Shown: one piece after another, positions 12,445 to 62,560 of the stretch
How positions within the stretch are numbered: position 1 is the stretch's first letter
Layout: each line of letters begins with the position of its first letter
Virus record (IMG/VR): IMGVR_UViG_3300026094_000002
DNA length: 64,000 nt
Origin: a virus
Taxonomy: Duplodnaviria; Caudoviricetes
Strand: one strand, 5' to 3'
Program-made: the position numbers and the translations under genes
The notes under the pieces: generated by a model
The model's input: the letters and a program-made list of their open reading frames with translations, nothing else
Databases searched by the model: none
Told to the model about the DNA's origin: nothing

Positions 12445-12515
12445 TGTTGTCCTCCTTTATTAAGCAAGTGACTAATAGTGCAACCCAAGTTGGCGTTGCA
12501 CATGTATTTATTATA
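12445..12515 (-). promoter_or_regulatory. hsp20 leader with TAAATA promoter and ROSE-like RNA thermometer
   Basis: TAAATA at 12505-12510; hairpin 12478-12501; CUU(G)CUU-AAUA-AAGGAG at 12452-12468. Confidence 0.7.
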
Positions 12516-12532
12516 CACTAATTACGGTTCAT

Positions 12533-12772
12533 TTAAAAGGGCTGATTCTTTTTTTCATCGTTTAATTTTTTAAGCCAACGCTTTCTCGCAGCGGCTTTTT
12601 TAGCCTTTCTTTCTTGGCAGGGCTTTTCATAGAATTCATGTTTCCGAACATCTTTTAGCACACCAGATTCATCAACTTTTTTCTTAAACTTTTTAAGTGC
12701 ACGTTCAAATTGTCCGTCACGAACCTCTACGCGATTTCCTTTAATCTTTATTTCGTCAGTTTTCTTTCTCAA
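12533..12772 (-). CDS. rpsU: Ribosomal protein bS21
   Basis: [19 protein letters not shown]...RKHEFYEKP...KKAAARKR; TTG start. Confidence 0.9.
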
Positions 12773-12816
12773 TTGTCAATACCTTTGAGTTCCTTTAATT
12801 ACATTTATGTGTTGTT

Positions 12817-14022
12817 TTAGAAATTGTAAAATTTCTTATCAATTAAACTTGCTGGTTGTTCAACAAGTTCTTTATTTACAATAATTTTGTTAATATTGTT
12901 TTCTCTATACCGAACCATTTCAAACATATGTGGGAGCAATGATTTTTCTATGTTTGAATGCAACCCACGGGCACCTGTTCCACCGACCAGCGTTTTATCA
13001 GCGATCTCATCAAGTGCATCTGGAGTAATTTCAAGTTCAATATCTTCTTGAGCAAATAATGTTTTGTATTGATTAACTAAATTTCCATCAACTTCTGTTA
13101 ATATTGATATTAATGCACCCTTATCTAATTCTGTTAGCGGGACAACATTTGGGAATCTTCCCACAAATTCAGGAATCATTCCAAAACTAACAAGATCGTC
13201 TGGGGTAACCTTGCCTAAATCCACTTCTTCCGACGGAGAGACAATGTGTGCAGTAAAACCAGATGCTGTTCCTGATTGACGGCGACGGACAATATCACCC
13301 AGACCGATAAACGCTCCACCTGCAATGAACAGTATGTTTGACGTATCAATATCAACTGTTCCCGAGTTTGGATTTTTTCTACCACCCACTGGAGGCACCC
13401 GGCATACAGTGCCTTCTACTATTTTTAACAGTGCCTGTTGAACGCCTTCGCCAGAAACATCTCTAGTGATAGAAGAGCTTTCGCTTTTTCTGGCAATTTT
13501 GTCAATTTCATCAACAAAAATAATGCCATTTTCACATTTTTTAACGTCACCATCAGCAGCAATTAATAATCTTGAAACCAAACTCTCAACATCATCACCT
13601 ACATATCCTGATTCGGTTACTGAGGTAGCATCAGCAATAGTAAATGGAACATCCAAATACTTTGCTACAGTTTGTGCTAATAATGTTTTTCCTGAACCAG
13701 TGGGACCAATCATTAAGACATTTGATTTTGCCAAATTATTTTCATTTGTATTTGAAATTCTTTTATAGTGGTTTGCAATTGCTACACTTAAGACAATTTT
13801 GGCCCAATCTTGTCCAAATACATTTTTATCAAGAGTGTTTTTAATTTCTATTGGATTAATATTAACACTATCAGAAGAACCATTAATTTGTTCTTTTAAT
13901 AAATCTTGGCACATTACAACACATTCATTGCATATACCCACAGAATTATTAACAATAAGTTTCTGAACTTCAGATTCTGGGCGATTACAGAAATTACAGA
14001 TATGAGGAGAATTATCAGTCAT
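12817..14022 (-). CDS. clpX: ClpX AAA+ unfoldase
   Basis: CNFC..CNEC zinc finger, GPTGSGKT, GYVG, DEIDK, RDVSGEGVQQALLK and GARGL. Confidence 0.95.
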   Translation of the reverse strand: MTDNSPHICNFCNRPESEVQKLIVNNSVGICNECVVMCQDLLKEQINGSSDSVNINPIEIKNTLDKNVFGQDWAKIVLSVAIANHYKRISNTNENNLAKSNVLMIGPTGSGKTLLAQTVAKYLDVPFTIADATSVTESGYVGDDVESLVSRLLIAADGDVKKCENGIIFVDEIDKIARKSESSSITRDVSGEGVQQALLKIVEGTVCRVPPVGGRKNPNSGTVDIDTSNILFIAGGAFIGLGDIVRRRQSGTASGFTAHIVSPSEEVDLGKVTPDDLVSFGMIPEFVGRFPNVVPLTELDKGALISILTEVDGNLVNQYKTLFAQEDIELEITPDALDEIADKTLVGGTGARGLHSNIEKSLLPHMFEMVRYRENNINKIIVNKELVEQPASLIDKKFYNF

Positions 14023-14024
14023 AA

Positions 14025-15944
14025 TTACCGGTCTTTTAGTCTCTCTTCTAATTGTGTTCTTTCTAGATCTGTTAATAATTCTGGATCATATTCGCCCGTT
14101 GATATTTTTTCAATGAGGTGATCAATATATGCATCGTGATATGCATACTGGTCTGTTTGTTCCTTATCTACTGGAATCCATTTTTGACCATTCCACTTAA
14201 ACAATCTGGTTGGCAAATAATCTACTCGGAGAAAAAGATCTCCCCGTTCTGGATTGGTTGGGAATTCTGTACCAAACCCAGCATTTGTTTCTCTTGGATC
14301 ATTGTCTGATTGAAGTTGAATCTTGGGATATAATCGTTGGAAAACATCTCTTGTGTATCGTTTTCCTCTATACTCAACATACCCAGTTGTTAGTTCATAA
14401 GGATGTTCCTCACTCAAATTTTCAGTAAAATCTGTAGTTTCTAAATCATTGGTCTCATCAATAGTATAAAAGTGCTCTGGGTTCTCTGTTTCGCTGGATA
14501 CTGGGGCCTCTAGATCATAATTGGTTGCAAGCCTATCATCATTATAAACATCATTATATGCAGTTTCGTAATCCAAAGTATAGTTATAGTGTGGAGTATC
14601 TACCTTCTGAGTCCATTCAAAATCACTATTACCAAAAGTTTCATCAATATTTGAATATTTTTCGTTACTTTCGGTAACAGGCTGAGCATTGTTAGTGTTA
14701 TTACTGTTAGTATTTTCAGTACTTCCGCCATTATTTTTGTTTGTGGGCGGACTTGTAGGCGGTGGTGGTGTAACGTGGTCAAACAAGTCTTGTCCATTCC
14801 ATCTAAATGTATATTGACTTGCAATGAGCAGAAGAACTGCGAGCGGATCAAATACAAAAATTATAATAACAATAACCCATTGCACTGCTTTTTCAAGAAG
14901 ATTTTGATCAGCCTCTTCTCCATATACAAATTCCGCAATATATTTTATAGGACCAACCTCGGCTTCCAACTGTCTAGTTTTGGCTTCTATTTCAAATTTT
15001 TCTTCGGTAAGATTATCAATTTTGCCAGATGCTGATTCTATTCGTGCAGTTTGTTCATCAATTACAGCGTCAATATCTTCGCCAGTGTTTGTTCCTAATT
15101 GAGACCGTAATCTTGTAATCAAATTTTGGGAATCTTCAACTTGCGATTCAACGCGTTTTCTCAGACGATCAATTTCTTCCCTTGCCTCAATGACACGTGA
15201 ATCATTATCCACCTCGTCTAATCGTTCTTCCAAAGCATCTTTGTCATCTGATTTTCTATCGCGATAGTTTTCAATTGCCTCTCTGGTATTAGGACCCATT
15301 ATACCATCTGATTGAACACCTATAATACTTTGTGCTGTGGCGATTTCACCATTTGAAACTGCAGCGTCTAGACTGTCTAATTCGGTATCAATTTCTTCTA
15401 TATCATCAAGTATGCGTCCCTCTTGACGATCTATGATATCGCGTTGTTCTTGAATAGCAGGTTCTACTCTTTCGTATGCACGATCAATTCTTTCTTGTTC
15501 TCTGTCAATCTGTGATTGAATAATTGAATCACCACCTACACCTTCACTTTGTGCAGATTCAATTTTGTCTTCAGCCCGGGAAACAACAGCCTCTTGTCGT
15601 GCAATTTCTGAATTGATTCTTTCTAATTGTGCAGTGGCACTGTCGCCTTGGGCAGTCTGCTGAACGTGGGCGTTTGATAATCCGCCGAAAATTCCCATAC
15701 TAGTTATAAACATTAAAACGATAACAGCAATTACAAGGTATGTTTTTAACCACCAAGTAGCCTGATGCCAATATCTATGAAGCCAAACTACTGTAACTAG
15801 TTTAGAAGACTCCAGAATAGTTCCCATTATCAATGTAGTTAATGCAGCCCCAGCAAAAATAGCGGCGAGTCCAGTGACTGAATAATATATGGCTGATACT
15901 GATAAAATTAATGCCGTAGCAAGTGTTACATAACTAAAAATCAA
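14025..15944 (-). CDS. Membrane-anchored coiled-coil protein with a peptidoglycan-binding-like motif
   Basis: N-terminal TM helices, long coiled coil, DGIMGPNTREAI, a further TM (IFVFDPLAVLLLIA), then a Pro/Asn/acidic tail. Confidence 0.6.
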   Translation of the reverse strand: MIFSYVTLATALILSVSAIYYSVTGLAAIFAGAALTTLIMGTILESSKLVTVVWLHRYWHQATWWLKTYLVIAVIVLMFITSMGIFGGLSNAHVQQTAQGDSATAQLERINSEIARQEAVVSRAEDKIESAQSEGVGGDSIIQSQIDREQERIDRAYERVEPAIQEQRDIIDRQEGRILDDIEEIDTELDSLDAAVSNGEIATAQSIIGVQSDGIMGPNTREAIENYRDRKSDDKDALEERLDEVDNDSRVIEAREEIDRLRKRVESQVEDSQNLITRLRSQLGTNTGEDIDAVIDEQTARIESASGKIDNLTEEKFEIEAKTRQLEAEVGPIKYIAEFVYGEEADQNLLEKAVQWVIVIIIFVFDPLAVLLLIASQYTFRWNGQDLFDHVTPPPPTSPPTNKNNGGSTENTNSNNTNNAQPVTESNEKYSNIDETFGNSDFEWTQKVDTPHYNYTLDYETAYNDVYNDDRLATNYDLEAPVSSETENPEHFYTIDETNDLETTDFTENLSEEHPYELTTGYVEYRGKRYTRDVFQRLYPKIQLQSDNDPRETNAGFGTEFPTNPERGDLFLRVDYLPTRLFKWNGQKWIPVDKEQTDQYAYHDAYIDHLIEKISTGEYDPELLTDLERTQLEERLKDR

Positions 15945-16807
15945 AATTTTCTTCCCGGTTTAAAGCCATCTGGTACATCATCTTCAAAAAACATTTTAGA
16001 AACAAATCCATTATTGTACCATTTTCTGCCTTTCATTTTTTTACTTAACTTATTACTTATTTCATTTAATTGTTCTTTAGACATTTGCTCATAAGTTTTT
16101 TTGCGTTTTTTTACGGTATTTTTTATTTCGCTAGGTGTTCTGTTGTTTTTTGATATTTTTTGTGCTTTTGATCTATTTTCAAAATCTTTTTTTCTTTGTT
16201 CATTGTCCCATTTAGATTTTGTTTCTAAAATTTTTTTGGTTCTTTTTATTTTTTCTTCTTCTGAAATTTTTCTCCACTGTTCTTTCACAATCTCAGACAT
16301 TTTATTTTTAAAATTTATTTTTTCTTCAGGCGTTTTGTCTTGCCAAATTTTTTGTCTATAAAGTTTATATTGATTTCTTTCCTCGTCGGTTTTTTCTTTC
16401 CATGTATTTTTAAACTTTTCAATTTGTTCTTTTGTTACTTTTTGTTTTTGGCGTTGTTTCTTTATTTTTTCTATTGTTTCTGGTGAATGATTTCTTCCGT
16501 ACCAACTAAATCCTTCATTTCTAGCATTGTGTTTATTATAAAATAAATCATTCTTTTCTACATCAAAAAAATTATGTAACTCAATTTCATGCTGCATTGC
16601 TTCTTCGCGATTATTAAAAATACCTAAAATTTCCTTCGTAAAACTATTTTTTCCTTTTTCATTGATATCCTCTTTAAGATATTCACTGGATCCAAAGTAT
16701 TCTGTATCTTCATGTGGCATATTCAATGAAGTCCTGACACCAATATAATATTTTCCATTATCAGTTGTTTCATTATTATTAGTAATGATATAAGTGTAGT
16801 GGTACAT
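15941..16807 (-). mobile_element. Free-standing GIY-YIG (Seg-like) homing endonuclease gene
   Basis: YTYIITN...KYYIG..TS...YFGSS, NUMOD3-like HSPETIEKI and GRKWYNNG end. AT-rich, with its own TAAATA at 16829-16834. Confidence 0.85.
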
Positions 16808-17972: not shown

Positions 17973-20054
17973 CTATGTAAGACGGTCTCTGGATTCATCA
18001 ACTGAATATTTTGATGTTTCAAACTTAATACTGTCACCTTCTGGAGGAGAATTAATAGATCTGGTTGAAATCCCGATAGATTCAAGGCGATCAATATTGC
18101 GTCCTTCTCGTAATGCAGAAATTAATGCTTGACCACCCTCTGTACTTCGGTCAGCAATTCCTTCTAAAAGTTGTCCTGCACCACCAACTGTAATGTCTAA
18201 TGCTCTTTGAGGCAATTGCTGAGCAAATCTTAGGGAATCTTCTCGGGAGTGTGGTAGATCATAGAAATTTGGTTCTATTAACCTGTCTCTGTTGAGTTTT
18301 TCTCTGGCACGGTGAATCTGCCAACGTTTGGTGTTTTCAATAATGGTGTTTGCGGTTTCTGGATTATTATTAACAATGGCTTTTGTTGCTGCTACTAACT
18401 CTGGATAAATGCCATTGAACCAAGCTGAATTAAATGCTTCTCCAAAAGTATCTTTTACGTACTCTCCCTCTCCTTTTACTCCTGATGGTATTGTTATTGT
18501 AACTGAAATAATTTCTGGCTCTTGTCCGCCTGTAGTCTGGACAGTTGTATATTCGTTATTTAAAACATGTTCAATAACTTGAAAAAACCCAATGCTTGGA
18601 TCTTCGGGTCCACCTTTTTTAGTAAATGGCAAAAACACCCCCGCAGATTCTAATTCTAAGAACAATTCTCTATTTTGCTGTATTGGAGCAACGATATTAT
18701 ATCCTGAAGCAATACCAATTAAATCGGTTAGCAATAGTCTTCCTCTAGGACCTGTGCCCAAATCAATAGGACTGCTCTCATCAAACCATATATCTTGAAT
18801 ATTATCCTCTACAAGTTCTGGTTGGTCTTGGATAGAATCAATGTCTTTTAAAGTTTCAACATCTTGTAATACTTTTGCGAAATCATCAACTGGGACAGAA
18901 AAGATATTCGTTATTTGCCCCAAACTTCTTGATAATGCTGCATTTGCCGCTGCAATTTCTGGTGGCATAACGCTTCTTAGCGACCCACCTAATCTGGTAA
19001 ATTCTTGAGATAAGCCACCCGAATTGTCAGAGTAAATTGGTTTAAATTCTACAGTAGAACCAAAAACAGGTGATTTTAATGTAAAATAACTTTTAGGGAA
19101 TATTTTTCTTGGATCCAATAAATCTGCTACTGTTTCTATTCCTTCTGTTCTTATTTGTAAAACCTTTTTAACACTATCTAAATCATTCCCACCAATTTCA
19201 GTCAGTGCATTATATAATGCTTTTAATATAACAGGAGGCGTTGAACCCCGACGTTCAAGTATTGTTCTTACATCAATATTTTTTTCTTCTAATTTACCAA
19301 CAATAATAGACAAGGCACTGGTTTGTGATAATCTACCAATCAATTGTCCGGGGTTGCCAAGTTGTGAAAGTTCAGAAAAATCAAGAAGTCTTCCTATTTT
19401 TTCAAGATCTTCACCAAATGCGGTTGTTGCTAAAGTTACACCAGAGATTCCTGATGTAATCCAATTGTTCATGTCTGTAAATGTAGGTTCTGCACCTTCA
19501 AGTGCTGTTACAGAATCAGTAAATTGATTGTTTTGTCTTGCATATGATTCTGACAATGCGATTGCTGCAGAAAATCTTTCAACATTTCCTGTTATAGAAT
19601 TTATGTTGTTTTCTGAAACATCTGCGGAACCAACCAGTGTCTCTGCAATCCAGTCGGGTAACAGTTGTAAAGGGGTGTTGAAATTTTCAGATGTAACAGA
19701 AGGACCTAAAATATCCCTTGTTGTTTTGTTATAAATTCCCAATATATCAAAAAATACACCATCTTCATTAACTACATTATTCCAAGAATCAATTATTTCT
19801 TGATCAGAAGTGCCGCCTTCAAAATTCTGCAAAAACTCTATTAATCGCTGATACCAATTTTGTGATGATAGTGAGTTTATTTGAAAAACTAAATTATTGA
19901 GACTTAATTCTACTTCAAGTTGAGTTTCTTCATCTAAGACAGTACCAATACCTTGACTACCCCCTGAGCCAAGTGCATTTCCTAAACTACCGGGATCGAC
20001 GAATGCAGCACCCGCTTTAAGAACAGTAGCGTTTACTAACCCTGTCGGAATCAT
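17973..20054 (-). CDS. Large hypothetical protein, probably virion (baseplate region)
   Basis: 693-aa acidic ORF coupled directly to the PAAR gene. Confidence 0.55.
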   Translation of the reverse strand: MIPTGLVNATVLKAGAAFVDPGSLGNALGSGGSQGIGTVLDEETQLEVELSLNNLVFQINSLSSQNWYQRLIEFLQNFEGGTSDQEIIDSWNNVVNEDGVFFDILGIYNKTTRDILGPSVTSENFNTPLQLLPDWIAETLVGSADVSENNINSITGNVERFSAAIALSESYARQNNQFTDSVTALEGAEPTFTDMNNWITSGISGVTLATTAFGEDLEKIGRLLDFSELSQLGNPGQLIGRLSQTSALSIIVGKLEEKNIDVRTILERRGSTPPVILKALYNALTEIGGNDLDSVKKVLQIRTEGIETVADLLDPRKIFPKSYFTLKSPVFGSTVEFKPIYSDNSGGLSQEFTRLGGSLRSVMPPEIAAANAALSRSLGQITNIFSVPVDDFAKVLQDVETLKDIDSIQDQPELVEDNIQDIWFDESSPIDLGTGPRGRLLLTDLIGIASGYNIVAPIQQNRELFLELESAGVFLPFTKKGGPEDPSIGFFQVIEHVLNNEYTTVQTTGGQEPEIISVTITIPSGVKGEGEYVKDTFGEAFNSAWFNGIYPELVAATKAIVNNNPETANTIIENTKRWQIHRAREKLNRDRLIEPNFYDLPHSREDSLRFAQQLPQRALDITVGGAGQLLEGIADRSTEGGQALISALREGRNIDRLESIGISTRSINSPPEGDSIKFETSKYSVDESRDRLT

Positions 20055-20341
20055 TAAGTACCCACCAAGACGTTTGAACTACCAGTTGCACGTGCGTGTC
20101 CGCAACTATCTGTGGCCCCAACATAAACAACAGGACGCCCTTCAGCAAGAACAGTTCCACTTCCTTGAGCAACAACTGCGGCACAATGACTTGGGCTATC
20201 AGGACATGGTGGATGTGCACTTACTCTATCACCAATTAGAGATGTTGGAATACCATTTGTCAACACCGTTGAAGAACCGGGACCTACAACGGATCCTCCT
20301 GCGTTATTGATATCCCCTAGCCTAACTACTGGACTTGTCAT
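20054..20341 (-). CDS. PAAR-domain spike tip protein (gp5.4-like)
   Basis: VVRLGD, IGDRVSAHPPC, EGRPV, DSCGH and GSSNVLVG. Confidence 0.9.
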   Translation of the reverse strand: MTSPVVRLGDINNAGGSVVGPGSSTVLTNGIPTSLIGDRVSAHPPCPDSPSHCAAVVAQGSGTVLAEGRPVVYVGATDSCGHARATGSSNVLVGT

Positions 20342-20877: not shown

Positions 20878-21126
20878 TTAAGATTTTAAATGCTGCTTTA
20901 ACTCGGTAAAGCCACCAACATAATGCCCAGCAACAATTATCTGTGGCATCGTAATTTTTTCTTCTGGATTAATATCATGATATTCTGTAAGCCAATCAAC
21001 CATTTGATCTTTAGTATAATCTGTATTGATGTTTCTTTCATCAAATTCAATTTCATTATCTTGAAGAAGTTTCTTAGCCCATTCACAATAAATGCATTGA
21101 TTTTTTGTCCAGATTATTGCACTCAT
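20878..21126 (-). CDS. Glutaredoxin
   Basis: CIYC, TMPQI and VGGFTEL. Confidence 0.9.
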   Translation of the reverse strand: MSAIIWTKNQCIYCEWAKKLLQDNEIEFDERNINTDYTKDQMVDWLTEYHDINPEEKITMPQIIVAGHYVGGFTELKQHLKS

Positions 21127-21704
21127 TTTTTTCTCCGTTGTTTATGTTTAGATTTGAGTAAGGAATCAGAAAGCCGATGTATTATACATGCATCTTCTGG
21201 TATTGGTTCTCCGGGGATTTTTAATAAAACAAAATAATTTGAGGGTAATTCAAAAAGTTTTAATTCTTCTGAAAATTTTTTCCATACAATATTGAATATA
21301 CCATCATCTATTCCACCTTTTGCAATTTCATCACACCATGCATTGACAAATTTCATTGTTCTTTTAGAATAATTAAACCATATTGAACCAACATGAATTC
21401 TATCTACTTGATTTACCGAATGATTTGCTGCGATATCGTAATTCATAATGTCATCACTAAACAGCAAATCAGGTTTAGTAATTATTCCGCCATCAACATC
21501 CATCCAGAATATTGGTTTCTTAAATTTTTCAAGTGTTTCTCTAATAAAAAGAGGTTTTATATTACAATTTTTACGATAGTCATCATATGATTTCTTCTCT
21601 ACAATATGATAATCTAAGCCTAATCTCTCACAATCTAAAGATAATTGAGTGGCATATTCTGGATATTTCCATTCTGGTGTATAGAAAGAAGTTACAATAG
21701 TCAT
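21123..21704 (-). CDS. GT-A-like nucleotide-diphospho-sugar transferase
   Basis: VTSFYT, IKPLFI, FWMDVD (DxD) and IIH. Confidence 0.65.
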   Translation of the reverse strand: MTIVTSFYTPEWKYPEYATQLSLDCERLGLDYHIVEKKSYDDYRKNCNIKPLFIRETLEKFKKPIFWMDVDGGIITKPDLLFSDDIMNYDIAANHSVNQVDRIHVGSIWFNYSKRTMKFVNAWCDEIAKGGIDDGIFNIVWKKFSEELKLFELPSNYFVLLKIPGEPIPEDACIIHRLSDSLLKSKHKQRRKK

Positions 21705-22348
21705 TAAAACACTTTTTCATATCCATACTTTTCAGAAAACTTATTAATTAATTTCTTTACATCCTCTGAAACTTCTGCAAATTGTTCTATCATTTCGTCA
21801 AAATTTTTATGTTTTCTTGTGTTTTCTTTTTTGTCATGTACTGAAAATTTTGCAGAAATGCCATTTTTACTTAAAGATTCAAAAAGTTTTAATTGCTCAT
21901 CTTCTACTCTAAATGTGACATCAGGATTCATTTCTACAACTTTTAAATCATAAAGACACAAACTTAAAATGGCATTTTCTATTGGGTTATCAGAATCAGA
22001 TAATCCAAGAATTTTCTTTCTATAATCAAATGACTTTTCTTTATTATCTTCAGTATAGACTATAGATGGGATGGAATAATAAGGATTCCTAACATTATAA
22101 ATTAAGAAATCAAAATTTGGTCTGCAACCAACTTGTATTGTATAGGGATATGGTCCTTGTTCTTTTATTAACTGCCAAGCGACTATACCATCATCTCCGA
22201 ATCTTTCATGGTCAACATCCAGCCCCCACTTTTTAAGAATTTTACTAGTAAATCTAGTCCCTGTTCTTGGATGTCCGAGTCCCAATATATATTTTTTTCT
22301 TGTTTCCACGCAATTACTTATCTTAGATAAGTCTGCTGGCTTTGGCAT
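21704..22348 (-). CDS. Sulfotransferase-like P-loop protein
   Basis: GHPRTGTRF (PAPS-binding-like loop) and VRNPY. Confidence 0.6.
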   Translation of the reverse strand: MPKPADLSKISNCVETRKKYILGLGHPRTGTRFTSKILKKWGLDVDHERFGDDGIVAWQLIKEQGPYPYTIQVGCRPNFDFLIYNVRNPYYSIPSIVYTEDNKEKSFDYRKKILGLSDSDNPIENAILSLCLYDLKVVEMNPDVTFRVEDEQLKLFESLSKNGISAKFSVHDKKENTRKHKNFDEMIEQFAEVSEDVKKLINKFSEKYGYEKVF

Positions 22349-22351
22349 TAA

Positions 22352-23671
22352 TTAATCTACAATCCCAGCCTTTACTGTTTTTAAAATATAGTGTAGTCCA
22401 GCGGCATATACAATTGCATATACTGATATATAACCAATTAAACTGGTGAGTGCCATTGGTCCTGTTAAAGATGGAGTTAATGCGTCTGCATGTGTAATAA
22501 TTCCATGTATTAACCAAGGTGCTCTACCAATTTCTGTGACAAACCACCCAGCAATAACTGCAACAAACGGGGCTGGAATCATTAATACCAAGAATTTATG
22601 AAATAATTTGTTAGTATATAACTTTCCTGTCATACGCAAACCAAGTGACATCACTGCTGCCAGTGCCATTAATACACCAATTCCAACCATAACTCTGAAT
22701 GACCAGAATACACCAAAAACCCAAGGCTGTTCTTCTTTCGGTGTTTGATCTAACCCGGGAACAATACCGTCGGGGTCATGCTTTAATATGACACTTGCTA
22801 AACTAGGTATCCCAACCTCAAGGTGGTTAGTTTGATTTTCTTGATCTGGAATTGCAAATAGTAAGAGAGGGACATTTCCTGAGGTTTCCCAGTTGCCCTC
22901 CATCGCAGCCAACTTAGGGGGTTGATATTCTAATGTATTCAACCCATGAAAATCACCCACAATAATCTGAGCAGGTGCTGCAAATAAAATTAGCCACATA
23001 CACATTGATAATGCTTTTTTGTGTATTTCAACATCCTTATTTTTCATTATAAACCAAGCACTTACGCCGCCCACGACAAATGCACCAGTCAAGAAACTGG
23101 CAATTCCCATATGTACAAAACGATAAGGAAATGATGGATTAAAAATGGCAGCACTCCAATCAACAACATGAATTGTGTTATTGATTACTTCTATTCCTGC
23201 TGGTGTGTGCATCCAAGAGTTAGCAGCCAAAATCCAGAAAGAAGAAACGAACGTGCCAACAGCAACCATAATTGCTGCAAATAAATGTGTTCCTGCAGGG
23301 ACTTTATCCCTACCAAATAACAACACACCCAAGAACGCAGCCTCTAAGAAGAATGCAGTTATAACCTCATAACTCAGCACTGGTCCAAGAAAATTAGCTG
23401 ACATCTGCGAAAAGTTGCTCCAGTTAGTGCCAAACTGAAATGACATTACTATGCCAGATACAACCCCCATGCCAAATGCAATGGCAAAAACTTTTGTCCA
23501 GAACCCCGCTAATGCATGATACGCTGCGTTACCTGTTTTATAATACAGTCCTTCAAGCAACGCAATAAACGATGCAAGACCGATAGAAAATACCGGAAAT
23601 ACAGCATGAAATGTTACTATGAATGCAAATTGCAATCTTGATAGTGCTAGTGGGTCAGACAAAAAGTCCAT
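22352..23671 (-). CDS. cydA: Cytochrome bd quinol oxidase subunit I (short Q-loop, CioA-like)
   Basis: SRLQFA...FH, YEV..AFFLE, ANSWMHTP, RFVHM, KLAAMEG, FRVMVG and TEIGRAPW. Confidence 0.95.
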   Translation of the reverse strand: MDFLSDPLALSRLQFAFIVTFHAVFPVFSIGLASFIALLEGLYYKTGNAAYHALAGFWTKVFAIAFGMGVVSGIVMSFQFGTNWSNFSQMSANFLGPVLSYEVITAFFLEAAFLGVLLFGRDKVPAGTHLFAAIMVAVGTFVSSFWILAANSWMHTPAGIEVINNTIHVVDWSAAIFNPSFPYRFVHMGIASFLTGAFVVGGVSAWFIMKNKDVEIHKKALSMCMWLILFAAPAQIIVGDFHGLNTLEYQPPKLAAMEGNWETSGNVPLLLFAIPDQENQTNHLEVGIPSLASVILKHDPDGIVPGLDQTPKEEQPWVFGVFWSFRVMVGIGVLMALAAVMSLGLRMTGKLYTNKLFHKFLVLMIPAPFVAVIAGWFVTEIGRAPWLIHGIITHADALTPSLTGPMALTSLIGYISVYAIVYAAGLHYILKTVKAGIVD

Positions 23672-23675
23672 TGGG

Positions 23676-24827
23676 TTATCCCTCTTTGTTGTTTAGGATA
23701 TCTGCAATACGGCTTGCTAATTCTCTAAACCATTGGGCATCATGTCCCTTGGTAGTTTCAGCGGCTGTTCCAATTCGTATACCAGATGTTTCTAAAAAAT
23801 TTCTTGGGTCATTTGGTATGCCATTCTTATTTACCGTGATTCCATTAGATTCTAAGAGATCAGCAGCAGCCTTGCCAGACCATTGTGTTTCTGATAAATC
23901 AAGCAAAATAATATGACTATCAGTGCCATCAGTTAGTGTCTTTATTCCCTTATCCCTAAAAACATCACACATCGCCTTTGCATTTTCAATGACTTTTTTA
24001 CTATAATCTTGAAATGATACATCTAATGCCTCTGAGAAACACTGTGCTTTAGCAGCCACAATATTCATAAGAGGACCACCTTGTGTGCCGGGGAATATGG
24101 CGGAGTTTATTTTTTTACTGTATTCCTCATTGTTCCACAATATCATACCGCCACGGGGACCACGAAGAGTTTTATGTGTAGTTGAAGTCAAAAAATCAGC
24201 GTATGGAACTGGATTTGGATAAGCACCACCAGCAATTAGCCCAGAATAATGAGCCATATCCACTAGCAGATATGCACCCACGTCATCGGCTATCTGTCTA
24301 AACCGCTTCCAGTCAATTTCTCTAGGATATGCAGATGCACCTGCGACTATAATATGTGGATGCACTTCATTAGCAATGCTTTCTATTGCATCATAATCAA
24401 GAAACCCGTTTTCATCTACACCATAAGAATATGATTTATATACTTTTCCTGATATATTAACTTTAGCACCATGAGAAAGATGACCGCCTGATGCCAAATC
24501 CATGCCTAATATTACATCACCGGGTTTTAAGAATGCTTGATATACCGCTGTGTTTGCATTAGCACCCGAATGCGGCTGAACATTGGCAAACTTTGCACCA
24601 TAGAGGTTAGTAACTAAATCAATAGCGAGTGTTTCAATTTCATCCATATGTTCGCAACCATTATAGTAACGAGCACCGGGATATCCCTCAGCATATTTGT
24701 TAGTAAATATTGACCCACAAAGACTTCTAACATCATCTGATGCAAAGTTTTCACTTGCAATTAATTCTATAGTGCTGTCTTGTCTTTTGGTTTCTTTGTT
24801 GAGAATTTGTTCAATATCGTAATTCAT
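23676..24827 (-). CDS. glyA: Serine hydroxymethyltransferase
   Basis: LIASEN, KYAEGYPG, NVQPHSG, GGHLSHG, TTHKTLRGPRGG and SGIRIGT. Confidence 0.95.
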   Translation of the reverse strand: MNYDIEQILNKETKRQDSTIELIASENFASDDVRSLCGSIFTNKYAEGYPGARYYNGCEHMDEIETLAIDLVTNLYGAKFANVQPHSGANANTAVYQAFLKPGDVILGMDLASGGHLSHGAKVNISGKVYKSYSYGVDENGFLDYDAIESIANEVHPHIIVAGASAYPREIDWKRFRQIADDVGAYLLVDMAHYSGLIAGGAYPNPVPYADFLTSTTHKTLRGPRGGMILWNNEEYSKKINSAIFPGTQGGPLMNIVAAKAQCFSEALDVSFQDYSKKVIENAKAMCDVFRDKGIKTLTDGTDSHIILLDLSETQWSGKAAADLLESNGITVNKNGIPNDPRNFLETSGIRIGTAAETTKGHDAQWFRELASRIADILNNKEG

Positions 24828-24841
24828 CAATGGCTCAGTTT

Positions 24842-25093
24842 TTATTCTTTTTGGTCTTCATACCACATAACAACAGCACCATATATATCCGGATGCTTAA
24901 ACAGACACAGCATCTTTGTAGCACCACTGCCGTTTACGTTGCCTATCAATTTTATTAAAGGTTGGTCTTTTGTATAGACTGCACCGTTTCTTGATTCACA
25001 GAATAATTCTCTAATTGCTGCCTTAATTTGGTCCCCCTCAGAAAGGGGGCGTTCTTGTGCTACTTCAGTAATATATGCCATATTATGCCTCAC
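24842..25093 (-). CDS. Hypothetical protein (83 aa)
   Basis: Co-oriented ORF between nrdA and glyA. Confidence 0.55.
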   Translation of the reverse strand: MRHNMAYITEVAQERPLSEGDQIKAAIRELFCESRNGAVYTKDQPLIKLIGNVNGSGATKMLCLFKHPDIYGAVVMWYEDQKE

Positions 25094-26762
25094 ATGCAGA
25101 ACAATTCATTATATCACGAACTAACTCTAATGATGGGTTAGAACTACGCTGGTAATAGAAAGTCTTGACTCCCATTCTCCAGCCTTCAATAACCAACTGA
25201 TTGACATCCTTGGCTGGTGCTTCTGGCGGAATCATCAAGTTAAGGCTTTGACTCTGGTCAATATGCTGCTGTCTTGCTGCTGCTTGTTGAACGATTGTGA
25301 TTGGAGTAATTTCGTCAAAAGTCTTAAACACCTCTTTCTCAGTTTCTCCAAGAAAATCAAGATGTTGCACTGACCCATTGTTTGTCAAAATTGACATCCA
25401 TGTTTCATCATCGTTCTTTTCATATGATTCAAGTACGCGAGCAAGGTACGGGTTCTTAAAAGTAAATTGTCCCTTTGCCAAATCTTTTGTGAAATAATTT
25501 GAACGCAGTGGCTCAATGGAAGGTGATACCTGACCAAGAATAAAACTTGAACTTGTTGTAGGTGCAATTGCACATCTTGTCAAGTTACGCTCACCATATC
25601 CAATAAGACCATCTGGCTCACCATAACGATCTGCCATTTCTTTTGATGCCTTAAGGCTTTCTTCATCAATATGCTTTGAAATCTCTGTTGCAAGATTGAT
25701 AGCGTTAAATGATTCAAATGGAATCATCTTATATTGAAGGTATGTGTGCCATCCAAGTTGGCCAATGCCAATTGCTCTCCATCTCTTAGCAAAATTATGA
25801 GGGGCTTGCATAAAATCAATATCTGCAGTTTTTTCAATATAATCTGTCATGACAGCATCAAGGAAATAGGTTAGAACTTTGACAGCATCCGTGTCTTTCC
25901 ACTCGTCATAGGTATGAAGATTCATAGATGCCAAGTTACATACAAATGATTCCTCGCTGTTAGAAGGTAAGCAGATTTCTGAGCAGAGGTTTGATGCATA
26001 TACTGGTAGGTTCCGATCTTTTAGAACCTTGGGTTTGTTATTATTAACATTATCAGTAAAGAAAAGATAAGGGTAGCCTGACTCGCGACGCTTACGCATA
26101 ACACGTGCCCATAGTTGAAGTTTTTTAGCATCAGTTGAGGCCATTTCTTTTGCTTTAACTGCTTCGCCCTCTGCTATCATGCTTTCCATCCATTCGTCTG
26201 AAATGCAAATGCCAATTGACATATTTTGAATAGCATGACCAACTTCACGAATTTCTAAAAATTCTTCAACATCAGGGTGTTCAATATCCAAATAAGCAGC
26301 AAAAGAACCACGTCGGACATTGCCCTGACTAATAACATCAGTGACGGTTTCAAAAATATTCATAAAATGAACAGGCCCATCAGCAGTACCGCCTGTTTTT
26401 ATTTTTGATCCACGTGGGCGTATGTCACCAAAATAACCGCTAGTACCGGCTCCGTGCTTGGTTTGCATTGCAACTTCACTGGCTTTATCCATTACTTTAG
26501 AAATTTCATCACCAACATATGCCCCATTACAAGAAATAGGAAGTCCCTTGTTGTTTCCAAAATTAGACCACACAGGGGATGACAGGCTATAAAATCCACG
26601 TCCCATATAATCGTAAAATTTATCTGCAAATCCTTCTACATCAAGAAATTTCTCAGCAGTGTCTGCAATTTCTCTAATACGATCTTCTGCCGATTGTCCT
26701 TTCGACAGATATCCACGAGACAAAAATGTCCGTGCATCTTTGTTTAACCAGTCAAACCCCAT
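25083..26762 (-). CDS. nrdA: Class Ia ribonucleotide reductase alpha subunit (short, no ATP cone)
   Basis: GLPISC, RRGS, SNLCSEI, AIAPT, QSLNL, TFYY and C-terminal CSAC. AAGGAG RBS at MGFDW. Confidence 0.95.
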   Translation of the reverse strand: MGFDWLNKDARTFLSRGYLSKGQSAEDRIREIADTAEKFLDVEGFADKFYDYMGRGFYSLSSPVWSNFGNNKGLPISCNGAYVGDEISKVMDKASEVAMQTKHGAGTSGYFGDIRPRGSKIKTGGTADGPVHFMNIFETVTDVISQGNVRRGSFAAYLDIEHPDVEEFLEIREVGHAIQNMSIGICISDEWMESMIAEGEAVKAKEMASTDAKKLQLWARVMRKRRESGYPYLFFTDNVNNNKPKVLKDRNLPVYASNLCSEICLPSNSEESFVCNLASMNLHTYDEWKDTDAVKVLTYFLDAVMTDYIEKTADIDFMQAPHNFAKRWRAIGIGQLGWHTYLQYKMIPFESFNAINLATEISKHIDEESLKASKEMADRYGEPDGLIGYGERNLTRCAIAPTTSSSFILGQVSPSIEPLRSNYFTKDLAKGQFTFKNPYLARVLESYEKNDDETWMSILTNNGSVQHLDFLGETEKEVFKTFDEITPITIVQQAAARQQHIDQSQSLNLMIPPEAPAKDVNQLVIEGWRMGVKTFYYQRSSNPSLELVRDIMNCSACEA

Positions 26763-26823
26763 GTGTATCTCCTTTGTTTTATTATAGTCAAAATAGTTCA
26801 TTCTTTTATATTATGCGTTCCAA

Positions 26824-27795
26824 TTAAAAAAGTTCGTCAGCAGAAATTCCTTGACCTTTAGAATATTCAACTGGTCGTTTTTGGAAGAAATCTGTCATTG
26901 TTGAACCTAATGTTGATTCATCAAACCAAAATGTTTTGTCTGCTAAGGATTTATCATACTTTACCATTGAACTATCAAAACCTATTTGGTCAAGAGAATC
27001 TTTCATTCGCTTAGCAACAAACGCCTTAAGGATATCTTTGTCCAATCCTTCTATAGCATAATCGCCTACCATCCAATCAATTACTCTTCCCTCAGCCTTA
27101 ATTGATTCTAAACATTCGTGTGCAATTCTTTCTTCTAATTCAGCATCAAAAAGTTCTGGGTACTCTTCACGAAGAGTATTAATAAGTTTGATACCAACCT
27201 GACTGTGTAGCATTTCCTCATTACGAGTATATTGTACTTGCTGTGCTACGTCCTTTAAAACTGCACGGTTTCTGTTGAAATGCATAACAATATAAAACTG
27301 TGAGAACAATGAGACATTTTCAACGAACAGAGTAAAGAGAATTATTGAATAAATGAATTGCTTGCGATCATTCTCATAAACTTTTTCATTATACTTGCGG
27401 AGATAATTGACTCTGCCGCGAATAACTTCTTCGTTGAGGTTTTCTTCAAACACATGGGTAAGATGAAGAACGTCTAATAATTTTTCGTAAGCCATATTAT
27501 GGATCACTTCTGAGTTTGCCATAGCATAACCAAGATCATTGATTGAAGGATGAGGAAGATGTGTTCCAACATTTGCCCAGAATGATTTTACGGCAACTTC
27601 AATCTGACCTATTGCTGATAGTGCTCTTACTACTACTTCTTGTTCTTGTTCTGTAAGGTCAGTTTTGAACTGACTATAATCTGATCTGAAGTTGAACTCA
27701 TCTGGAGTCCAGAATCCGCTCCAAATTGCGTCAATAAATTGTTTTGTCCAAGGATAGTGGTCGGGTTTTCTTGATAGTTGTTGTTCAAATAGCAT
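26824..27795 (-). CDS. nrdB: Class Ia ribonucleotide reductase beta subunit
   Basis: FWTPDE, QIEVAV, SEVIH..AY, ENVSLF, NEEMLH and TDFF. AGGAG RBS at MLFEQ. Confidence 0.95.
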   Translation of the reverse strand: MLFEQQLSRKPDHYPWTKQFIDAIWSGFWTPDEFNFRSDYSQFKTDLTEQEQEVVVRALSAIGQIEVAVKSFWANVGTHLPHPSINDLGYAMANSEVIHNMAYEKLLDVLHLTHVFEENLNEEVIRGRVNYLRKYNEKVYENDRKQFIYSIILFTLFVENVSLFSQFYIVMHFNRNRAVLKDVAQQVQYTRNEEMLHSQVGIKLINTLREEYPELFDAELEERIAHECLESIKAEGRVIDWMVGDYAIEGLDKDILKAFVAKRMKDSLDQIGFDSSMVKYDKSLADKTFWFDESTLGSTMTDFFQKRPVEYSKGQGISADELF

Positions 27796-27883
27796 AATTC
27801 TGATTCTCCTGATTTTAGTGCATAGTTCGGGTTTCTTGGATATTGTTCCATGTCCTATAGACGAGCAACAACAAGCAAGATAC

Positions 27884-28318
27884 TTAATAATTTTTGTAGT
27901 GCTTGAGATTTTTTGCGTTGATTTTACGATCAACTACTAGATCTTGTATGTCAACACCATTAAGATCACTATAGCAGTAACCTAGAAAATATTTAGCAGG
28001 AAGTACCTCAACCATAATACCTTCATTAGAATCAATAACGTATACGCTTTCTATGTCGGCCCGAAAAAGCAATCCTAAAGTATATACTATTCCCATAGAT
28101 CGGGTTAGTTCGCACCATGTATTATCAGAAAGAAGATCCCAAGGACTGGGCCAGTCATCCCAATCTTCCCAAGCGATGTGTTGTGTGGAAAGAGGTGCTT
28201 GCATCCACCAATTGTTTACTTCAAGCAAACAATCATATAATGATAGAGTTTGACACTGTTGTCTAAGGTCGTTCCATTCTCGGAGGCGATCTTCGAACTG
28301 CTGTGCCCAGTACATCAA
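27884..28318 (-). CDS. Hypothetical protein (144 aa)
   Basis: Overlaps the stop of the upstream tail gene; WPSPWDLL..N.WC motif. Confidence 0.6.
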   Translation of the reverse strand: MMYWAQQFEDRLREWNDLRQQCQTLSLYDCLLEVNNWWMQAPLSTQHIAWEDWDDWPSPWDLLSDNTWCELTRSMGIVYTLGLLFRADIESVYVIDSNEGIMVEVLPAKYFLGYCYSDLNGVDIQDLVVDRKINAKNLKHYKNY

Positions 28319-60985: not shown

Positions 60986-62560
60986 TTAGAACATTGCAAT
61001 GAATGGCATTGGGTCACGCCGCTCACCGTGGTCACTCATTTGGCTGGTTAATTCAACGTGGTAGTTCTGTAATTGTTGTAACATTCTGACTACCAATACG
61101 GTTGCCATTACAAGGTCATCAGTCTCTCCCGGCTTTGCTGCATAACTTGCACCACGTGCAACAAATGTTTTTAATTCACTCATCAATGACCGACTAAAAA
61201 TCTGCATTTTCTCTGCTTCAAGCATTGTTTTTAATTTAGAACACGCTGCTAATTTTGGTTTATTACTGGTGTTAAATCCTTTTCTCAGTCTTCTTCCACC
61301 ACCACTACCGCTTGGTTGTTTGCTATCACTTAGAAAATATCCTTGTATATTCTCTTCGCCATAATCAGCAATAGAAATAAGTGATGCTTCACCAATGGTA
61401 TTATTCTCAACAGAATAGTAGATACTATTGACGTCATTAACCGTTTCATTAATATGTTTGCATATATCAGCAAGAATTCTTATTTGTTCAGGAATGTCAG
61501 TACGATTGTTTTTCCACTCTGCAACTTGTGTTGAGGTATTTGCCTCAAAAACTTGGATTGCAGAAAAATCACCACCTGTACCCAAACTTGGGTCTAATCC
61601 TACTACATATATATTACCCTTTTTAGGGCGATGATACCAACGAACTTCACCAGTTTTGTATAGTGGTTCTGATGGTTCTAAATCAATTAACTTGGCGGGG
61701 GCAATAAGTGTTTCATCCTGAATCAAAAAAGAACATTCATGTTCTCGCTCAAACCTATCGTCACCCAGTGCAGCACGTTGTTCAGCCGCCCATTTTTCAT
61801 CTCTATCAGGATGTTCTTGCCAGTATGCTCGGAATGCTTTAAACCCATTTATGCCTAATTCTGTTTTATTGCCAAACTCATCTTCTGTTTTGTTAGCACC
61901 TTTCCATAGGTAAGCAAACTGATCTTCATCTGAGTTTGGTGTTGAAGTAATAATTGCTTTACCACCAGTTGAGAGTGTTGGTGATATAGAAGTCCAGAAC
62001 TCTCTGGCAATAGTTGGCCTGACATATGCAAATTCGTCAGAATACAATAGTGTTATACTCATACCACGACCGGTATTTTCAGTTGTTGTTTGTGATACTA
62101 TTCGGCTACCATTATCAAACTCTATACTGCCTTTGTTATAACTTGTTGCACCTGCTCTAATATGATCTGGACACAATTCATAAGCATAACGAACGCGTTG
62201 CATTATTTCCTGAGCACCCAAATATTTGTGTGCTGCAACTAATATTGTTGAGTCTGGGACAAACATTGCATACCATAGTAGATAACCCGCAGCACATGTG
62301 CTTTTGCCACATTGTCTGGGGAGCATTGATATAGAAAATCTGTAATTATGATAGGTATCAATCAAACGGGTTTGGAACTCAAATGGGGCATACAACATTC
62401 TTCCCTTGGTGGGATGCTGAATGTAAAAGAAATTCTTAAGAAAATATTGTGGTCCAGTATTGGGGTCAGCACACGCGGCAAACTCTATTAACTGTTCTTC
62501 TGAATAACTTTCTTGTTTATGTGGGTTCTTTATTAGAACCCCTTCCATTGTTTTACTCAT
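60986..62560 (-). CDS. Terminase large subunit (T4 gp17-like)
   Basis: PRQCGKST, LYSDEFA, TSTPN, GLDPSLG and DDLVMA. Confidence 0.93.
   Translation of the reverse strand: MSKTMEGVLIKNPHKQESYSEEQLIEFAACADPNTGPQYFLKNFFYIQHPTKGRMLYAPFEFQTRLIDTYHNYRFSISMLPRQCGKSTCAAGYLLWYAMFVPDSTILVAAHKYLGAQEIMQRVRYAYELCPDHIRAGATSYNKGSIEFDNGSRIVSQTTTENTGRGMSITLLYSDEFAYVRPTIAREFWTSISPTLSTGGKAIITSTPNSDEDQFAYLWKGANKTEDEFGNKTELGINGFKAFRAYWQEHPDRDEKWAAEQRAALGDDRFEREHECSFLIQDETLIAPAKLIDLEPSEPLYKTGEVRWYHRPKKGNIYVVGLDPSLGTGGDFSAIQVFEANTSTQVAEWKNNRTDIPEQIRILADICKHINETVNDVNSIYYSVENNTIGEASLISIADYGEENIQGYFLSDSKQPSGSGGGRRLRKGFNTSNKPKLAACSKLKTMLEAEKMQIFSRSLMSELKTFVARGASYAAKPGETDDLVMATVLVVRMLQQLQNYHVELTSQMSDHGERRDPMPFIAMF

Follow-up and report, generated by a model that had tools for sequence, protein, structure and literature searches.

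Cyanophages carry psbA and psbD, the genes of photosystem II core proteins, as auxiliary metabolic genes. A candidate counterpart in respiration is described here. It lies in a window of 64,000 nucleotides (the whole stretch of DNA that was analysed) from IMG/VR virus record IMGVR_UViG_3300026094_000002 (Duplodnaviria; Caudoviricetes), and consists of cydA, the gene for subunit I of a cytochrome bd quinol oxidase, with no gene for the partner subunit, cydB, beside it. Much like psbA and psbD as they are generally known, this cydA supplies only the cofactor-binding core subunit of a host membrane energy complex, is derived from a host, is conserved across a phage clade under purifying selection, and would presumably act within a hybrid complex. 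Unlike them, it belongs to a respiratory quinol oxidase and to another host group, has no known rationale in D1-type turnover, and is known here from sequence. The most economical reading would make it a psbA-like respiratory gene whose CydA pairs with the CydB of the host. We place at about 0.6 the probability that cydA is an auxiliary metabolic gene of long standing, its product pairing with CioB, the CydB of the host's cyanide-insensitive oxidase (CIO).

The nearest bacterial systems are the CioAB oxidases of Spiribacter and other Ectothiorhodospiraceae, Marinobacter and Halomonas/Vreelandella, whose CioA shares with the phage protein the haem ligands, the seven-residue spacing of the channel glutamates, the quinol-site Lys/Glu, the motif GRxPW and nine transmembrane (TM) helices. 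In these bacteria, cioA is followed by cioB and its product ends in a tail of ~32 aa, whereas the phage cydA has neither, shows phage-like GC content and codon use, and sits among phage genes of nucleotide metabolism. Among viruses, a Caudoviricetes genome from a hydrothermal vent encodes cydAB and has been proposed to manipulate host respiration (Langwig et al. 2025, PMC12043954). That virus carries both subunits and is a single case, whereas the cydA described here is subunit I alone and marks a diversified clade with conserved synteny.

A bd-type oxygen reductase can also work without CydB, as the archaeal CydAA' enzymes (qOR4a/qOR4b) do (Murali, Gennis & Hemp, bioRxiv 10.1101/2021.01.16.426971). 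These have a diverged cydA' beside cydA and a six-residue spacing of the glutamates, in contrast to the phage gene, which has no paralogue nearby and a spacing of seven. Membership in CydAA' (qOR4a) was rejected on these grounds, there being no second PF01654-like or polytopic open reading frame (ORF) nearby. As an auxiliary metabolic gene, the phage cydA lies inside a phage genome, is of cellular origin and has been retained under selection; its expression and its metabolic effect are predicted.

A complete CIO-type subunit I and the search for its partner

22352..23671, minus strand: cydA, CIO-type, qOR1, short-Q-loop cytochrome bd subunit I, 439 aa (PF01654 and residue check)

The product of this ORF matches PF01654 (Cyt_bd_oxida_I) with an E value of 2.4e-156, its residues 10-436 covering profile positions 1-417 of 418, that is, end to end. 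An earlier account of the window made from the letters alone (the sequence-only reading) had described a full-length CydA with equivalents of E. coli H19, E99, E107, H186, K252/E257, M393 and E445/R448. All of these were found when residue equivalents were counted on phmmer (HMMER) alignments to the solved structures of E. coli CydA (6rko), AppC of bd-II (7ose) and the Geobacillus enzyme (5doq). The haem ligands are H22 (E. coli H19), H187 (H186), M328 (M393), E102 (E99) and E380 (E445). E110 (E107) forms the proton-channel glutamate pair with E102, the quinol-site residues are K253 (K252) and E258 (E257), and R383 (R448) falls in the motif GRAPW. Across 40 aligned homologues the haem ligands and the quinol-site Lys/Glu are invariant. 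The short Q-loop noted in the same account was likewise borne out: the loop is ~60 residues shorter than that of E. coli, the alignment being interrupted at query residues ~310-315 against E. coli 310/365, and the short-loop CydA of Geobacillus (5doq) aligns with the protein collinearly and without a break.

Enzymes of the qOR1 family have seven residues between the channel glutamates and pair with CydB (bioRxiv 10.1101/2021.01.16.426971). Since seven residues also separate E102 from E110, the phage CydA is assigned to the qOR1 family of Murali et al. Hydropathy gives nine hydrophobic segments in the CydA of each of nine relatives' loci, and 12 partly overlapping segments in the window's own ORF, compatible with nine TM helices. 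The closest named homologues are annotated as cyanide-insensitive oxidase, and across the entire length identity is 68-71% to CioA of Spiribacter and other Ectothiorhodospiraceae, Marinobacter and Halomonas/Vreelandella, and 69-71% to that of Halomonas, Marinobacter and Halovibrio. With all haem ligands, proton-channel glutamates and quinol-site residues present, the phage CydA reads as intact, and its predicted function is that of a quinol-driven O2 reductase binding haems b558, b595 and d (or b). Membership among the bd-like OR-N/OR-C proteins, which lack a quinol site and Q-loop and go with c-type cytochromes, was ruled out by the presence of the quinol site and Q-loop and by the absence of cytochrome c neighbours; the Pfam matches on neighbouring genes are to nrdA/B, serine hydroxymethyltransferase (SHMT), glutaredoxin and PAAR, and none is to a cytochrome c family.

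The two ORFs that follow cydA encode soluble proteins and not CydB, and the canonical cydAB/cioAB arrangement is absent. For a wider search, a CioB profile was built from 14 bacterial CioB proteins, each encoded directly downstream of a bacterial cioA. This profile finds CioB (E 1e-39 to 1e-177) immediately downstream at every locus with sufficient downstream DNA whose CydA is at most 70% identical to the query, and finds no CioB at any locus whose CydA is at least 72% identical. Over the 64-kb window its best E value was 0.84, with no CioB, and no ORF of the window other than cydA exceeds five hydrophobic segments, in agreement with the claim of the sequence-only reading that the window holds no cydB-like ORF.

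The window is part of genome record GCA_902725755.1 (contig CACUXM010000001.1, 305,141 bp; window position w = record 216,189 + w), and the search for cydB spanned record ~176.3-304.9 kb, some 128 kb of contiguous DNA (the window and ~65 kb of flanks) or ~42% of the genome. In the flanks the best CioB-profile E value was 0.13, and the only polytopic protein was a CHASE2 cyclase. Four IMG/VR records of the phage clade, searched whole, held no PF02322, and no cydB was found on ~12 related cydA-bearing phage fragments, including contigs of 24 kb and 28 kb and an ENA contig of 75 kb. At the clade's loci there is no polytopic membrane ORF apart from CydA and no second cydA nearby. Downstream of bacterial cioB, a crude search for a small, hydrophobic and conserved CydX-like ORF gave nothing usable.

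A scan of all IMG/VR with the CioB alignment found no cydB of this phage clade's type. It returned only seven contigs (L247-L253), all with complete cydAB operons and a locus GC of 0.48-0.69, whose CioB is ~50% identical to the query alignment. These are unrelated to the phage cydA clade, because their CydA is only ~48% identical to the phage protein; they represent either genuine carriage of a whole oxidase or host DNA that flanks predicted prophages. The description of cydA as an orphan therefore stands for the window, its ~65-kb flanks, the ~12 relatives and the IMG/VR scan, and does not extend to record 1-176 kb, which lay outside the search.

A tblastn search of GenBank phages gave 19 further records with CydA, which were set aside; all are below 53% identity, and most are short unannotated fragments or multi-contig host-like entries. 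Several short cydA-bearing fragments labelled "phage" probably come from hosts. The entries under the name Acinetobacter phage MD-2021a (CAKLQH020000001.1, CAKLQF020000001.1 and others) comprise multiple contigs of 328-379 kb, carry cydA_1 and cydA_2, and look like bacterial sequence filed as phage.

Phage residence, ancestry and selection

The phage context of cydA is certain. Phage genes lie on either side of it for tens of kb: within the window are genes for TerL, a UvsX-like recombinase, a gp32-like single-stranded-DNA-binding protein, DnaB, other helicases and virion proteins, and the flanks of the window hold a tail sheath and a T4 gp13-like protein. The gene is ~66 kb from the nearer end of the 305-kb record, and so is at neither a contig edge nor a prophage border. 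Identical gene and context occur in independent assemblies (ENA ERZ27257101, Logan SRR14626313 and the NCBI record), contigs from further studies (X3 record 12, X6 record 22) cross the glyA-cydA junction without differences, and at least five studies of metagenomes from saline soil, lake and aquatic settings include runs that contain the cydA stretch. Chimeric assembly, against which the sequence-only reading had wanted the phage context checked, is excluded, since assemblies and studies made independently share these junctions, and relatives no more than 73-86% identical retain the synteny. A megablast of 8 kb against GenBank phages gave no match, and among the runs that carry the cydA stretch the searches listed no RNA run.

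A search of 5.8 billion proteins returned ~30 metagenomic CydA of 436-454 aa that are 69-98% identical to the query, followed by the CioA proteins of Halomonas/Vreelandella, Marinobacter and Halovibrio, which are 470-476 aa long and ~70% identical. Scans at the DNA level added short-type loci in IMG/VR and JGI metagenomes, saltern and soda-lake brine among them, as well as named bacterial loci. The sequence-only reading had called for a CydA phylogeny to find the donor, and one was run with IQ-TREE, rooted on alphaproteobacterial and Marinicella CioA. In this tree, ~38 short, cydB-less CydA are monophyletic (UFBoot 100, SH-aLRT 99.9), and they form a clade (99/96.7) with the CioA of Spiribacter sp. 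and of metagenome-assembled genomes of related Ectothiorhodospiraceae. The phage clade is thus sister to Spiribacter-type CioA and nested in gammaproteobacterial CioA. The short-type genes share a single bacterial origin; in the simplest history, cioA was captured once from a bacterium like Spiribacter and cioB was left behind.

For ~12 loci of the clade the context is available, and there cydA sits on a phage-like contig that shares the nrd/glyA synteny. The order nrdB-nrdA-(glutaredoxin)-glyA-cydA is kept at 73-86% identity; one relative is without glyA, and the downstream genes vary.

Composition and substitution patterns both bear on how long the gene has been kept. Its GC is 0.40 and its GC at third codon positions (GC3) 0.31, against 0.36 for the window and 0.52-0.56 for bacterial cioA genes; in other members of the clade the GC of cydA is 0.47-0.55 and tracks that of their own contigs. 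Because its GC has moved to phage values, cydA is taken as a long-standing phage resident and not a recent acquisition. Within the phage clade, the pairwise ratio of nonsynonymous to synonymous substitution rates (dN/dS) is 0.05-0.12, and the two bacterial cioA genes compared gave 0.03. The phage and bacterial sets have fixed different residues at only 16 positions, mostly as conservative changes; the non-conservative changes specific to the clade are D171, H217, K297, H358 and T432. The most conserved segments of the phage clade are TM2 and TM3, with a mean column conservation of 0.95 and 0.98.

The genes around cydA

The genes of the block around cydA, in the order in which they are read, are as follows:

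26824..27933, minus strand: nrdB, ribonucleotide reductase small subunit (PF00268, E 7.6e-44)
25083..26801, minus strand: nrdA, ribonucleotide reductase large subunit (PF02867, E 3e-98)
24842..25093, minus strand: 83-aa ORF between nrdA and glyA (no Pfam match)
23676..24830, minus strand: glyA, serine hydroxymethyltransferase, directly upstream of cydA (PF00464, E 3.9e-146; NF000586)
23680..23685, minus strand: Shine-Dalgarno-like AGAGGG, 8 nt ahead of the cydA ATG (sequence reading)
21704..22348, minus strand: 214-aa soluble sulfotransferase-like ORF, 3 nt past the cydA stop (no TM segments; ESM Atlas)
21123..21704, minus strand: 193-aa soluble ORF, second gene of a variable cassette (no Pfam or PHROG match)
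20878..21126, minus strand: glutaredoxin (PF00462 on the public gene call)

The sequence-only reading had placed cydA in an nrdB-nrdA-glyA operon, and the arrangement agrees: on the minus strand the order is nrdB, nrdA, the 83-aa ORF, glyA, cydA, the 214-aa ORF, the 193-aa ORF, glutaredoxin and a PAAR protein, and from nrdB to the 214-aa ORF no intergenic gap exceeds 22 bases. A public gene call (L005) starts nrdB later, at ~27795, giving 323 aa. The glyA stop codon TAA (23676-23678) falls between the Shine-Dalgarno-like AGAGGG and the cydA ATG, which suggests that translation of glyA and cydA may be coupled. The conserved linkage to class I ribonucleotide reductase (RNR), SHMT and glutaredoxin likewise suggests co-expression with nucleotide synthesis. 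Scans for promoters and terminators around the operon gave matches no more numerous than in shuffled sequence, and the T4-type late-promoter word TATAAATA was not enriched, with none near the cydA operon.

The sequence-only reading had called the gene downstream of cydA sulfotransferase-like. Neither Pfam nor PHROGs gave a match for the 214-aa or the 193-aa ORF, so that part of the claim found no family support; the lead comes from the ESM Atlas, where the 214-aa ORF has feature scores of 0.97-0.98 to viral "sulfotransferase family" clusters and structural matches (TM-score 0.67-0.76) to Sulfotransfer_1/3 clusters. This pair of ORFs is variable. Contigs of runs X3 and X7 (lake and aquatic) drop both, joining 21127 to 22361/22365, and keep cydA, and the 214-aa ORF is not present in the relatives L087 and L093; where the cassette is lacking, as in these two, glutaredoxin comes directly after cydA. 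On the other side, contigs of the same two runs skip 24823-25083, which removes the 83-aa ORF and leaves cydA, and several relatives have a glutaredoxin-like ORF at that site. The variants on either side of cydA resemble small cassettes, mobile or variable, that border a fixed core.

Several other features of the genome were seen in passing. The PAAR-motif protein (20054-20341) is followed by a 693-aa protein without a family match (17973-20054); the pair adjoins the cydA block in L087 too and may form a tail-tip or puncturing device. A set of proteostasis and translation genes (12500-15950 and the left flank, L254/L256) includes a ClpX-like ATPase (12817-14022), ribosomal protein S21, HSP20, ClpS, ClpP and SufE. 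Just left of the window, Pfam marks on public gene calls show a CsgF/CsgG-FecR-CHASE2 cyclase module. The NCBI record and the ENA contig differ ~14 kb to the left of the window (L256:15576-16103, a 175-aa ORF, against L257:15604-16683, ORFs of 359 aa and 124 aa), which is a strain-level gene replacement. TerL (60986-62560) is 524 aa as read, and no letter-for-letter match is on record; its length in the public gene calls is 520 aa (NCBI) or 524 aa (ENA), reflecting a difference between strains or in the start codon called.

Proposed pairing with a host subunit and the alternatives

The case for a host partner brings together the intact catalytic residues, the strong purifying selection and the published dependence of these enzymes on CydB. 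In solved bd oxidases, CydA contains the quinol site and the three haems, and CydB the channel for O2 and a branch of the proton path; the main proton path runs at the interface of the two, lined by TM2 and TM3 of both subunits, and mutations in CydB abolish activity (PMC8951039). A partner is therefore to be expected for the phage CydA.

The events could have run as follows. An ancestor of this jumbo-phage lineage would have taken cioA alone from the cioAB operon of a halophilic gammaproteobacterium near Spiribacter (Ectothiorhodospiraceae), and strong purifying selection has since maintained the gene as the phages diversified. The later steps are ones that we infer: the timing of expression, the pairing with CioB, the catalysis and the advantage gained by the phage. 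During infection, cydA would probably be co-expressed with nrdAB, glyA and glutaredoxin. Its product would enter the host membrane and, by way of the host's haem-insertion and assembly factors, join host-made CioB in a hybrid oxidase. Such an enzyme could sustain or boost high-affinity, inhibitor-tolerant O2 respiration, and with it proton-motive force and ATP, in oxygen-poor saline water. The bd oxidases do have a high affinity for O2 (bioRxiv 10.1101/2021.01.16.426971), which would presumably be useful in brines, where little O2 dissolves, and oxidases of the CIO type maintain respiration under sulfide and NO (PMC10968556). A role under low-O2, NO or sulfide stress, as the sequence-only reading had proposed, is a plausible conjecture for a CIO-type oxidase.

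Several points weigh against pairing with host CioB. The whole phage clade is, by alignment, without the hydrophilic C-terminal tail of ~32 aa found in bacterial CioA, which in halophilic gammaproteobacteria holds a conserved RPxRP(L/M)SA motif (for example L167:5303-5410 and L169:5312-5419). Loss of the tail could mean altered assembly or regulation; we know of no described function for it. The CioB of the present host may have diverged from the partner with which the ancestral gene co-evolved, since the phage GC of 0.36 is far below the 0.52-0.56 of the donor lineage. Nor, to our knowledge, does CydA undergo fast turnover of the kind that, for D1 (psbA), explains the resupply of one subunit alone. 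The cydB search leaves 58% of the genome (record 1-176 kb) outside its span. Moreover, cydA and cydB are both missing from 24 IMG/VR jumbo-phage records related by TerL, including three with a completeness of at least 95%, and cydA is thus an accessory gene of one sub-lineage, dispensable for the wider phage family. Finally, the binding of the phage CydA to CioB is itself reasoned from sequence.

The alternative that survives best, though it is improbable, is that the phage enzyme needs no CydB at all: on its own, as a homo-oligomer or together with some small unrelated protein, it would act as a minimal quinol oxidase or a haem protein that scavenges O2, NO or sulfide. This would be compatible with CydA containing the quinol site and each of the three haems (PMC8951039), the archaeal CydAA' enzymes show that CydB can be replaced (bioRxiv 10.1101/2021.01.16.426971), and the clade-wide loss of the tail marks a protein altered after capture; the tail-less form may even be a first minimal bd-type oxidase. 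However, the sequence is of the qOR1 type and only ~30% diverged from CioA proteins that are always accompanied by CioB. Beside cydA the clade has neither a second cydA nor a conserved small membrane ORF, with gaps of just 3-4 nt, and in L087 cydA leads straight into glutaredoxin. The interface helices TM2 and TM3 are near-invariant, and CydB, in the structures that have been solved, contains the O2 channel and part of the route for protons (PMC8951039). A complex prediction with two copies of the phage CydA, as a probe for a homodimer, scored 0.00 and gave no answer, and counts as evidence neither way.

Only slightly less probable is that the phage CydA is a takeover or poison subunit, which displaces host CioA or titrates CioB and so rewires or damps respiration through regulation, inhibitor sensitivity or reactive oxygen species. 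The lost tail and the changes D171, H217, K297, H358 and T432 could conceivably alter regulation or the use of partners, and phages known to change host respiratory strategy are cited in PMC12043954. A pure inhibitor, however, would have no need of the full set of catalytic residues, yet the phage CydA retains it, and the dN/dS is as low as that of cellular genes.

It is still less likely, and clearly so, that cydA is not an orphan and that the phage encodes the whole oxidase, with cydB elsewhere in the genome. The 176 kb beyond the searched span would leave room for it, and the vent virus with cydA and cydB (PMC12043954) is a published precedent. Against this, the two genes are adjacent in every bacterial locus with sufficient downstream DNA, so a split would need a second capture. 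The ~12 clade fragments have no cydB, the 128 kb around the gene were negative, and the IMG/VR-wide scan gave only the seven unrelated cydAB contigs.

An artefact or passenger, whether from chimeric assembly, host contamination or recent gain of a functionless gene, could be suspected of a metagenome-derived genome when many database "phage" records with cydA resemble host DNA, but it is already contradicted by the identical context across several independent assemblies and studies, the tens of kb of phage genes to either side, the phage-like GC, the strong purifying selection and the synteny kept in diverged relatives. What probability these readings leave over belongs to explanations that were not considered.

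Pairing of the phage CydA with host CioB, as the favoured reading, would make cydA an auxiliary metabolic gene in the style of psbA, here for a respiratory quinol oxidase. The authors of the vent-virus study described cyd genes as unknown in other viruses (PMC12043954), and searches of the literature found nothing on a lone phage cydA (subunit I) or on phages of Spiribacter-like hosts that carry cydA. Auxiliary metabolic genes for photosynthesis are textbook material; counterparts for aerobic respiration are almost undocumented. The lone subunit I described here marks a clade of saline-water phages that is diversified, under selection and conserved in synteny, a pattern that speaks for a benefit to the phage. 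If the hybrid oxidase is real, these phages would directly tune a high-affinity branch of respiration, tolerant of sulfide, NO and cyanide, in oxygen-poor brines. It would also amount to a natural experiment on how far CydA and CydB can be interchanged between lineages, and would bear on how bd oxidases are assembled.

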